A stretch of DNA of 64,000 nucleotides from Candidatus Obscuribacterales bacterium (GCA_965228855.1 CBDDIJ010000005.1:768001-832000), one strand, 5' to 3'. Shown: positions 19,192 through 23,749, counted from the first letter of the stretch. Program-made: numbers and translations. The notes: generated by a model not told the origin, from the letters alone.

Positions 19192-21072
19192 CTAAATCTT
19201 CGGTAATTGCATCCAGAATTTAGAACCGGCTCCCTTGTCGACGGATAGTCCGACTTCGCCACCATGCTGTTCGATAATCGCTCGGCTCAGTGCAAGCCCC
19301 AAACCGAGCCAGGTGCCCTGCGCCATGCCAGGAAGATTGATCTGCTGGAAGCGTTCGAACATCGTTTCGATCTGCTCTTCCGGTATTTGCAGGGAAGGGA
19401 CCTGAATTTCGATAACGAGGTGAGGAGAAGTATGCGAAAGCAACTGCCTTGTAACTCGCGGCGTAACCACGTTGATAGAAACAGCTTCTCCCGGCGGCGT
19501 CAGCTGAATTACCGCAGTCAACATTTTTGTTAGAGCCTGAACCACGCGTTCGGGGTCCACTGTGACGAGGTCTTGCGAACCATCGAAGAGAAGAAGAATG
19601 TCGGCGGACTCGACCGCTCCGGCAACCGCTTCAACAGCCTTGTCTATGAGATCTTCGACCTCGGATTCGCATTTAACCAATTCGAGCTTATTAGCTTCCA
19701 GCTTTTCCAGGTCGAGCAGATCATTTATAAGCATGATGACCTGCTCTGTCTGTCGAGTAGCAACTGCCAGATCTTCTTCAACGGCGTCGATGTCCTTACC
19801 GAAAACGCCCATCCCGAGCAACTCTAGAAACATTGAAACCGACGCGAGCGGCGTTCGCAATTCATGGCTGACCATCGCCACGAATGCCTGACGCAACTTT
19901 TCTACCTCGTGACGCTCGCTGACATCAAGAACCATTGCCAGTTGGTGCTCGGTCTTGTCCGTGGAAATGTCGGCAGTAGAAAGCTCCACCGGAAATGTTG
20001 TGCCATCCTGCTTCTGAGCAATCAACTCCACGACGCGGCCAGTCGAATTATCTTTCAACCAGCGAAAGAGAGAGACACCCGTGACACCACCTGCAGTGAA
20101 TAATTTAGACAGTTCAAAATCTTCAAGAGCATCCTGCTCATATCCAAGCTGCTTTGCCAATGTGGGATTGACGAATTCGATTTGCCCGGCGCCGTTCACA
20201 ATCATCAAGCCCGCCGGCATCTGAGATATCATCGAGAGAACAGCACTCTCGCTGGATTTCAGTAGAGCCTCTTCACCGCGGAGCGATGAAGCCATTTTGT
20301 GAAAGGCTGCGTCCAGTTTTGCAAGTTCGTCTCCACCAGAGATTTCGCTATGCAGCGCCTCCCCGTCCTTCAAGCGGTCGAAGTTCTCCACCAGAATATT
20401 TAGCCGTTTGGTCAGAACAACGCGAACGAATAAAAGCACAATCAATACAACTAGTCCGTTTAAAACTGCTCCGCTAATCAAAACGAGTTTTGTAGCTTCT
20501 CGTTTTTCTCGCTGCAACGCGGGAAGTTGCCCTTCGATTGCACGCTCCTGTCCCATGAAATCTCGAAGATCGCGAACCAGTTCTTCAATCCGCGGAGCCA
20601 GGCGGTTTCTCTGGTCAAGACTAAACTTCATCGCCTCCCAGTGAGGTCTTGTATCACTGGCGATGCGCATCGATTCGAGGAGTTCAAGCCCGACTTTCAC
20701 GTTCTCCTCTATCTTGCCCATCAATACCAACTGACCGGGTTGATCTTGCAAATTTCTTTTCAGCCAGTCTATTTGCTTCGGAATTAAATCGCGAGCTTTT
20801 TCATATGCGGCCAGGCTCGCCGCCGAGGTCGCAGGATCATCTTCCTTATGAATTCCATATTTTCCGACCTTATCGCCGGCTTCGTACATACGCAGGAGTA
20901 GCTTGCTGGCACGATTGATGATCTCTCTGGTTTGCTGCTGCTTCACAGACTCCTCTTCAGCCTGCTGCACAAGCAAGAAATACGTTCCGAAGAAGATCGT
21001 CTCGAGGACGAGAATCGCGACTGTCAGCAGCATGCCTTTAGCACCGAGCGTTAGAGTGCCGGATCGCGTCAT
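19192..21072 (-). CDS. Membrane sensor histidine kinase (TM-periplasmic-TM-HAMP-PAS-HisKA) with an intact H-box but degenerate ATP-binding domain
   Basis: H-box VSHELRTP (His codon 19864-19866); N-box reads QALTKMLTAVIQLT with no Asn; G1 reads IQVPSLQIP with no DxGxG; G2 GLGLALS and HGG retained. Confidence 0.9.
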   Translation of the reverse strand: MTRSGTLTLGAKGMLLTVAILVLETIFFGTYFLLVQQAEEESVKQQQTREIINRASKLLLRMYEAGDKVGKYGIHKEDDPATSAASLAAYEKARDLIPKQIDWLKRNLQDQPGQLVLMGKIEENVKVGLELLESMRIASDTRPHWEAMKFSLDQRNRLAPRIEELVRDLRDFMGQERAIEGQLPALQREKREATKLVLISGAVLNGLVVLIVLLFVRVVLTKRLNILVENFDRLKDGEALHSEISGGDELAKLDAAFHKMASSLRGEEALLKSSESAVLSMISQMPAGLMIVNGAGQIEFVNPTLAKQLGYEQDALEDFELSKLFTAGGVTGVSLFRWLKDNSTGRVVELIAQKQDGTTFPVELSTADISTDKTEHQLAMVLDVSERHEVEKLRQAFVAMVSHELRTPLASVSMFLELLGMGVFGKDIDAVEEDLAVATRQTEQVIMLINDLLDLEKLEANKLELVKCESEVEDLIDKAVEAVAGAVESADILLLFDGSQDLVTVDPERVVQALTKMLTAVIQLTPPGEAVSINVVTPRVTRQLLSHTSPHLVIEIQVPSLQIPEEQIETMFERFQQINLPGMAQGTWLGLGLALSRAIIEQHGGEVGLSVDKGAGSKFWMQLPKI

Positions 21073-23072: not shown

Positions 23073-23749
23073 TATGATTTCCTCTCCGTGTCAAACAGAA
23101 AACCGACACCATGAACGGTGCGAATGAACTCTCCATCCGGGTCGATTTTCTTTCGGAGGCGCTTCAACGTACTTTTCGTTGCTTCCAGCGTAGACTCTGA
23201 CTCCGACGACCAGATGCGGTTAAGCAATTCCTCAGCGGAAAAGACTTGATCGGGATGTCGCATCAAAAATTCGAGAAGTTGAAATTCTTTTGGCAACAGC
23301 TTCGCAGAGGAACCACCAAAGCGCACCTTCTGCTGCTTCCGGTCGAGCAGGAAATTCCCAACATGCAAGTCATTGCTGAGCACATCAGAAGGACGTCTAA
23401 GTAGAGCCCGAACCCGCGCGCTTAGTTCCTTAGCGCTGAAAGGTTTAGTCAGATAGTCGTCAGCACCGCTGTCGAGTCCTGTTTCCTTATCCTCAACCGC
23501 ATCCTTGCCCGTGAGCATAATTACAGGCAAATGACCATTTGCTCTTCGATACTCCTGTAGCAACGCAATTCCGCTCGCGTCAGGCAACTGCCAGTCCAAG
23601 ATAATCAAGTCCAACTCCGGAATCAAAAATTTTTCTTGAGCATCTCGACCATCATAAGCAACCTCTACTTCGTAATTTTCGTGAGTCAAAGTTTGCTGGA
23701 CGAGGTCCGCAAGCCCTTTGTCATCATCCACTATTAGTATCTTCGTCAT
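23072..23749 (-). CDS. OmpR/PhoB-family response regulator
   Basis: ILIVDDD, ILDW phospho-Asp, MLT, YLTKPF; winged helix ending IRTVHGVGF. Confidence 0.96.
   Translation of the reverse strand: MTKILIVDDDKGLADLVQQTLTHENYEVEVAYDGRDAQEKFLIPELDLIILDWQLPDASGIALLQEYRRANGHLPVIMLTGKDAVEDKETGLDSGADDYLTKPFSAKELSARVRALLRRPSDVLSNDLHVGNFLLDRKQQKVRFGGSSAKLLPKEFQLLEFLMRHPDQVFSAEELLNRIWSSESESTLEATKSTLKRLRKKIDPDGEFIRTVHGVGFLFDTERKS

Follow-up and report, generated by a model that had tools for sequence, protein, structure and literature searches.

Complementation between a histidine-less kinase and one with a defective ATP site has been engineered in EnvZ/Taz and in AgrC. Likewise, GacS carrying H293A and GacS carrying G472A/G474A in the G2 box complement each other in mixed dimers (PMC8498467). 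Natural two-partner arrangements have also been described: FasB and FasC of Streptococcus pyogenes, published in 2025, heterodimerise in two-hybrid tests, with FasC His246 being needed and the FasC kinase domain dispensable (PMC12675982), while in CheA3/CheA4 of Rhodobacter sphaeroides the histidine and the ATP site lie on separate proteins, neither of which works alone (PMC3591291). Here we describe two paralogous membrane histidine kinases, HK-A and HK-B, that are encoded together with a response regulator on a 64,000-nucleotide stretch of DNA (the window) from Candidatus Obscuribacterales bacterium (GCA_965228855.1, CBDDIJ010000005.1:768001-832000). HK-A has lost its phosphorylatable histidine and HK-B its ATP site, and the residues that each of them keeps suggest that the two quite likely act as one kinase, a trans-phosphorylating heterodimer.

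All three genes lie on the minus strand, and coordinates are counted on the window:

23749-23072, minus strand: OmpR/PhoB-type response regulator, 225 amino acids (aa); Response_reg and Trans_reg_C above the Pfam cut-off
23072-21069, minus strand: HK-A, 667 aa; two transmembrane (TM) helices, periplasmic domain, HAMP-like segment, PAS, His-less domain for dimerization and His phosphotransfer (DHp), intact catalytic and ATP-binding (CA) domain
21072-19192, minus strand: HK-B, 626 aa; two TM helices, CHASE3/four-helix-bundle-like periplasmic domain, HAMP, PAS, intact H-box, degenerate CA domain
21839-21837, minus strand: phospho-His position of HK-A, AAT, Asn412, in the H-box SNELRNP
21474..21500, minus strand: intact N-box of HK-A, with Asn525, Asn529, Lys532 and Tyr533 aligned to CpxA Asn356, Asn360, Arg363 and Tyr364
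21714..21716, minus strand: Arg453 of HK-A, position H+41 in helix α2; kept in His-less partners and mostly lost in His-bearing ones
19864..19866, minus strand: His403 of HK-B, CAT, the sole H-box histidine of the pair, in the H-box SHELRTP with Glu+1, Arg+3 and Thr+4 present
19513..19527, minus strand: degenerate N-box of HK-B, with Lys516 and Ala520 where CpxA has Asn356 and Asn360
19381..19404, minus strand: degenerate G1 box of HK-B, QVPSLQIP

The regulator stop TAG and the HK-A start GTG overlap by 1 nucleotide, and the HK-A stop TGA and the HK-B start ATG by 4 nucleotides. In the regulator Asp52, Thr80 and Lys102 are all present, and judging from its sequence and position it would likely be the phospho-acceptor of the pair. 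The two kinases share 31% identity across 631 aa, and both exceed the Pfam cut-offs for HisKA (PF00512), HATPase_c (PF02518) and PAS_9. Every HisKA-type domain is kept, and Pfam detected no Hpt or CheW domain in the pair. All ATP-site boxes of HK-A (N, G1, F and G2) are canonical; HK-B retains its F box (FERFQQ) and part of G2 (GLGL), and the counterpart of HK-A Arg453 is Gln444. Neither chain combines a phospho-His with a complete N/G1/G2 ATP site. An acidic 40-aa tail of HK-A was seen only in the window and in genome G007 (G000 denotes the genome holding the window, other G-type labels denote further genomes and L-type labels loci).

The initial annotation had described three overlapping genes (TAGTG and ATGA), an intact OmpR-type regulator, two full-length open reading frames (ORFs), a His-less HK-A with canonical ATP boxes and an HK-B with a canonical H-box that has lost its N-box asparagines and G1. 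We confirm each of these, with the addition that the F box and part of G2 remain in HK-B. It had also assigned both kinases one TM-periplasmic-TM-HAMP-PAS-DHp-CA layout, of which the TM, PAS, DHp and CA parts stand; the Pfam match to HAMP is weak and below the cut-off in HK-B (E 0.009), and HK-A gave no Pfam match to HAMP.

A change from CAT to AAT is a single base change, which is what a sequencing error or a private mutation would produce, and two duplicates could also decay independently, as the intact kinase beside a decaying copy at locus L209 might suggest. Four other genomes conserve the loss with different residues, however. Genome G007, which is 97% identical, likewise has AAT at the HK-A site, and G006, G005 and G002 have ACT or ACC (Thr). 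The N-box of HK-B is dead in all four orthologous loci (TKMLSS in G002, G005 and G006), the order regulator-A-B is kept in these four of seven same-genus genomes, and the regulator lies directly upstream of A in 4/4 same-genus orthologous loci. One locus (L184) is 97% identical to HK-B, and helix α1 of HK-B is 90-100% identical among five orthologues. Ratios of nonsynonymous to synonymous substitution rates (dN/dS; Nei-Gojobori, from the single genome pair with G007, with few changes per domain) were 0.12 for HK-A, 0.06 for HK-B and 0.045 for the regulator, and at most 0.18 in every domain, including the two periplasmic domains (0.15 and 0.025) and the dead CA domain of HK-B (0.10). Against the remaining orthologues (56-78% protein identity), dS was mostly saturated. 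HK-A and HK-B are under purifying selection.

The AAT in G007 and the Thr codons in the other three genomes therefore lead us to reject a sequencing error, and conservation in four genomes with low dN/dS leads us to reject a private mutation or decay at this locus; the doubts that the initial annotation had attached to the Asn codon, and to whether orthologues keep both losses under selection, are thereby settled. Taken with the pairs in G000 and in other genomes that are described below, error or independent decay has a negligible probability. Sequencing runs X1 and X3 gave contigs identical to the window over its full length, which are possibly its own source; the strain of run X5 differs at 203 positions across the whole stretch and was not used for the HK-A Asn codon.

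The same division recurs within G000. Among its 109 kinase cores, 81 are intact, 8 have the His without N and G1, and 8 are His-less with an intact ATP site; the others lack G1 only (5), have an unaligned H-box (5) or lack both His and ATP motifs (2). All eight His-only kinases overlap a His-less, ATP-intact gene, seven of these partners coming from the His-less class and one having an unaligned H-box with no His by eye. Reciprocal pairs make up 8 of the 12 adjacent co-oriented kinase pairs, whereas 100,000 label shuffles gave 0.21 reciprocal neighbours on average and never more than 4. We conclude that reciprocal pairing in G000 exceeds chance, with 16 of 109 kinase cores being halves of such pairs. 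Two overlapping pairs of intact kinases in this genome (C2:2414976-2418676 and C3:2881627-2885222) are possible heterodimers before degeneration, and a solitary kinase at C2:1273485-1275920 lacks both His and ATP motifs.

Up to 103 same-family genomes were searched with members of such pairs as queries, which yielded 256 loci with 367 distinct kinase units. These include 88 clean reciprocal pairs in 30 genomes, 44 of them fused in a single chain, although counts across genomes are biased by the queries and by kinship and are not independent. None of the 367 units lacks both His and ATP site. In many relatives, one chain holds two complete TM-periplasm-TM-(PAS)-DHp-CA units. The 68 two-unit single chains comprise 44 with a His-less unit followed by a CA-dead unit, 21 that are intact twice and 3 that are one-sided, two of the last joining a His-less to a nominally intact unit and one a CA-dead unit to a unit without the acidic residue at H+1 (L203). 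The His-less unit comes first in all 44 reciprocal fusions. Two TM helices and a periplasmic segment are present in both units of 43/43 complete reciprocal fusions, the 44th being cut by a contig end. After neighbours of fused chains were dropped, 65 adjacent gene pairs remained. Of these, 45 are reciprocal in either order, although one, which spans an array junction in L136, was not kept; another 12 are intact, 3 would be reciprocal but for an H-box that did not align, 2 are fragments and 3 are one-sided. In three cases that combine a His-less with a nominally intact partner (L201, L230, L242), the N-box or ATP lid of the His-bearing partner shows early wear.

Chains of 1,200-1,340 aa with two full sensor-kinase units occur at L050 (G019:C12), L188-L195 and L217-L248, and single chains with both units intact at L114-L126 and L164-L168, some of them in tandem arrays (three in L168). 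A four-gene array at L172 (G050:C11:91000-103000) consists of two reciprocal pairs in tandem. The 730-aa pair at L064 (G006:C4) has a His-bearing partner that is interrupted by stops within the match, which reflect a frameshift or an assembly error.

The 88 pairs were then compared by residue. Because units had been sorted into classes by His, by the second N-box Asn and by G1 and G2, these columns are circular, and the other columns are not. His-bearing (B) units keep an acidic residue at H+1 in all 88 cases, Arg/Lys at H+3 in 88, Thr/Ser/Asn at H+4 in 88, the residue at H+50 in 83 and Lys/Arg at H+54 in 88; the corresponding numbers in the 88 His-less (A) units are 59, 50, 21, 58 and 18. The first N-box Asn shows the reverse distribution (A 88/88, B 31/88), as does Arg at H+41 (A 88/88, B 14/88), a split that is seen in 7/8 lineages, with the single young case L119 as the exception. 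His-less pseudokinase regulators of the DivL type act without lending ATP catalysis to a partner. Conservation of the CA domain is 0.78 in A units versus 0.82 in intact kinases, and the partner of an A unit is nearly always CA-dead with a His.

In the Michaelis complex of CpxA, the His, Glu+1 and Arg+3 meet ATP bound by Asn356, Asn360, Arg363 and Tyr364 of the other chain, and the F-box Phe contacts Leu292 and Arg296 of the opposite monomer (PMC3904827), which we read as the His-bearing chain. Leu292 and Arg296 map to H+50 and H+54 in this family. One complete active site appears to be retained across two chains, with opposite α2 flanks kept by opposite partners, and two homodimers, or a complex acting only as phosphatase, would agree less well with this split than would a mixed four-helix bundle. 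HK-A and HK-B would accordingly form a membrane heterodimer with a single active site, in which the ATP-binding domain of HK-A would phosphorylate His403 of HK-B in trans, and HK-B would hand the phosphate to Asp52 of the coupled regulator. Phosphatase activity would run via Thr+4 of HK-B; the HK-A of the window, with its Glu+1, Arg+3, Asn+4 and Lys+54, could contribute to it.

Separate homodimers could also share the work, the ATP domain of HK-A phosphorylating the His of HK-B in a transient complex, as CheA4 and CheA3 do (PMC3591291), and the nearly invariant helix α1 of HK-B would agree with this. In a homodimer of B both α2 flanks would be required, whereas Arg H+41 is divided between the partners as given above, and the 44 fusions each join one A and one B unit; we regard such homodimers as improbable.

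Slightly less improbable, though still unlikely, is a pair without autokinase activity: a phosphatase or phosphate sink, or an HK-B that works as a ChpT-like phosphotransferase fed by another kinase, with ATP on HK-A being allosteric only. It would account for the E-x-x-N kept by the HK-A of the window, for the Thr/Ser/Asn at H+4 of every B unit and for the 5/8 pairs in G000 that have no adjacent regulator, and, should the family be cis-acting, a loop like that of HK853 would rule out phosphorylation in trans. The residues of autophosphorylation are, however, kept where they are needed (the acidic H+1 and Arg H+3 in B, the first N-box Asn in A, 88/88 each), the phosphatase residue at H+4 survives in only 21/88 A units, and the window operon contains no kinase besides HK-A and HK-B.

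We derive trans phosphorylation in the heterodimer from how the losses are distributed. Decay in a cis-acting family should leave one intact and one doubly dead copy, a combination that is nearly absent, with L209 as the one near case. Several observations weigh against the heterodimer, besides the dependence among the genomes counted. At L209, an intact kinase stands with a copy that lacks the ATP site as well as Arg+3/Thr+4, and the A orthologue at L065 has a His at the site, regained or kept, with Asn at +1. The HK-A of the window retains Glu+1, Arg+3, Asn+4 and Lys+54, leaving the partition incomplete in this lineage. In G000, one His-less, ATP-intact kinase (C5:110976-112541) is solitary and without a partner, and a regulator lies within 1.5 kb of only 3/8 pairs. 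Three of the seven same-genus genomes (87-95% complete) gave no orthologue with this query. Finally, the closest solved structures in the PDB are those of Thermotoga HK853 and Streptococcus VicK. HK853 is homodimeric and cis-acting. The same holds for VicK (PMC3904827), whereas the loss pattern here implies trans. The DHp domain of HK-B aligns to HK853 gap-free with the same loop length; compared with the α1-α2 loops of trans-acting CpxA and of PhoR, that of HK-B has 6 and 2 more residues, respectively. Loop length and handedness have been used as predictors of cis (PMC5956149).

Trans-autophosphorylating HisKA kinases, among them CpxA and GacS, have a right-handed α1-α2 loop. GacS, which is also a close match, is trans-acting (PMC8498467). 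Since close relatives include GacS (trans) as well as HK853 and VicK (cis), sequence nearness does not settle the direction of phosphorylation. Arg314 and Arg317 of HK853 did not enter the argument on handedness, since the published description of these residues does not name the subunit that provides them. The appeal to EnvZ and NtrB by which trans phosphorylation had been argued at first does not hold, as the closest solved relatives are the two cis-acting kinases instead. The heterodimeric split kinase itself has gained comparative support from conservation, selection, repeated origin, fusions and the split of DHp residues, and the heterodimer is what we infer from these.

Among the described systems, Rv0600c and Rv0601c of Mycobacterium tuberculosis are an ATP-binding protein and a His-bearing protein, two complementary fragments and not full-length sensor paralogues. 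They share with our locus the arrangement of two kinase genes and one regulator, TcrA (PMC3544749). FasB/FasC/FasA is likewise an operon of two adjacent membrane kinases and one regulator, and here the genes overlap and their order is conserved; the His coming from one partner and the kinase domain from the other is matched here at the level of sequence. In the Fas system each kinase has six TM helices and the regulator is ComE-like, whereas HK-A and HK-B have two TM helices each, PAS and periplasmic bundles, and a regulator with an OmpR-type Trans_reg_C domain. FasB retains histidines (His241, which is dispensable, and His284) and may still use one, and cis phosphorylation was not excluded for FasB/FasC (PMC12675982). 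Unlike in that pair, both defects are visible in the sequence here, and the design recurs and fuses. The GacS mutants carry the same two lesions, with activity restored in trans, but are laboratory mutants of one homodimer, while ours are diverged natural paralogues. CheA3/CheA4 are class II, cytoplasmic proteins that lack entire domains and whose P1-kinase contact is transient (PMC3591291), as opposed to class I HisKA kinases with all domains kept, which would share one DHp bundle; the P1/P4/P5 architecture is absent here. RetS-GacS of Pseudomonas is also a DHp-DHp heterodimer, but an inhibitory one, GacS being active as a homodimer (PMC8498467).

In a literature search that left most subscription journals outside, full-length HisKA paralogues whose reciprocal losses are evident from sequence turned up in no paper, nor did single-chain fusions of such paralogues, and the reviews searched for the design do not mention it. 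The view first taken, that no characterised natural membrane HisKA pair of this design is known, must be amended: FasB/FasC is the closest natural case and a precedent, though of another kinase type and without sequence-evident His loss. We conclude that the pair is a genuine variant of the split kinase, one that is conserved and has evolved repeatedly.

The origins of the His-less units were followed in a tree of the CA region from which the H-box was omitted (225 rows, a few of them truncated or misclassed). The His-less state needs 17 changes among these rows, at least 3 of them forced by strong branches, and a single origin of His-less units was rejected (approximately unbiased test, P = 0.001; 44 rows selected to cover the lineages). 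The clearest separate origin is L119, a reciprocal fusion that sits inside a clade of intact fusions with a support of 100. The tree could be obscured by gene conversion among paralogues, and we therefore limit the firm statement to more than one origin of His-less units; several origins are probable from the tree. The distant pairs L249 and L251 (37-43% identity) cluster with A in trees.

The closest matches in other genera (L025-L028) are single intact kinases next to a regulator, as would be expected if a duplication came first and the reciprocal losses later. A phylum-wide search (200 genomes, alignment query) gave matches only from about the PAS domain onward and no orthologue with this query; the 29 top loci that were examined are all intact kinases. 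We suggest that a kinase gene in an ordinary regulator-kinase operon was duplicated and that the copies dimerised, whereupon loss of the His in one would have freed the ATP site of the other to decay and locked the partners together. The intact two-unit fusions (L114-L126, L164-L168) are likely the starting state for reciprocal loss.

What the two sensor halves perceive may be read in two ways. The periplasmic domain of HK-B resembles CHASE3/4HB/TarH bundles (Atlas 0.94-0.95; Pfam CHASE3 below the cut-off). Bundles of this type bind ligand at the dimer interface. Most likely, the two periplasmic helical domains form one composite receptor, and one composite, asymmetric site is a simpler reading than AND logic. 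In a true AND gate, as suggested in the initial annotation, each periplasmic/PAS domain would sense its own signal and both would be required. Purifying selection acts on each of the two periplasmic domains (dN/dS 0.15 and 0.025), which have diverged from each other, and all 43 complete reciprocal fusions keep the TM helices and periplasmic segment in both units; one dimeric receptor of the type that the bundle resembles would equally predict retention of both domains. AgrC mixed dimers signal from either subunit, although our literature search did not retrieve this. In the natural case that has been studied, the membrane and sensing domains of FasB are dispensable under overexpression (PMC12675982). 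The AND gate has no evidence of its own, and we hold it to be possible but doubtful.

One further gene probably belongs to the operon as its first gene:

23776..24810, minus strand: 344-aa ORF, 26 nucleotides upstream of the regulator; its middle part is acidic (64% D/E), and its C-terminal domain is conserved but belongs to no known family

Among the four orthologous loci, this ORF lies upstream of the regulator in L021, L023 and L024 (99, 61 and 68% identity) and not in L022; it gave no Pfam match, no Atlas match and no paralogue in G000. Next to it, 24954-35498 encodes a 3,514-aa protein with a Lys/Ala/Pro-rich N-terminus, repeats and apparently two C-terminal GGDEF-type domains (by eye). 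Giant ORFs of at least 2,000 aa are found within 4 kb of 3/8 reciprocal pairs versus 4/92 other kinases, which are small numbers. On the other side, alanine racemase-like, NadD-like and HD-domain genes (16472-19185, named by eye) are convergent with HK-B and end 6 nucleotides from its stop. We rejected a role of these alr-nadD-HD genes, as G007 is the only one of the four orthologous loci in which they adjoin the triplet.

For annotation, the pair means that each gene alone would pass as a normal kinase or a pseudogene. Obscuribacterales are non-photosynthetic relatives of cyanobacteria, and in this family a natural cis/trans complementation experiment has been run many times. From the 88 pairs one can read off the DHp and CA residues that belong to the His side and those that belong to the ATP side, with Arg H+41 standing out. 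We tentatively propose that the Obscuribacterales repeatedly turned homodimeric kinases into single-active-site heterodimers or single-chain pseudo-dimers, which may have left the receptor halves free to diverge towards asymmetric ligands or AND signals, and which would act in trans despite an HK853-length loop. If true, trans phosphorylation with such a loop would put a limit on the rule that infers cis or trans from the loop. Sensor kinases are freed from their symmetry limit in heterodimers and in single chains with two units, which bears on signal integration and asymmetric-ligand sensing, and they offer ready scaffolds for engineered two-input sensors.

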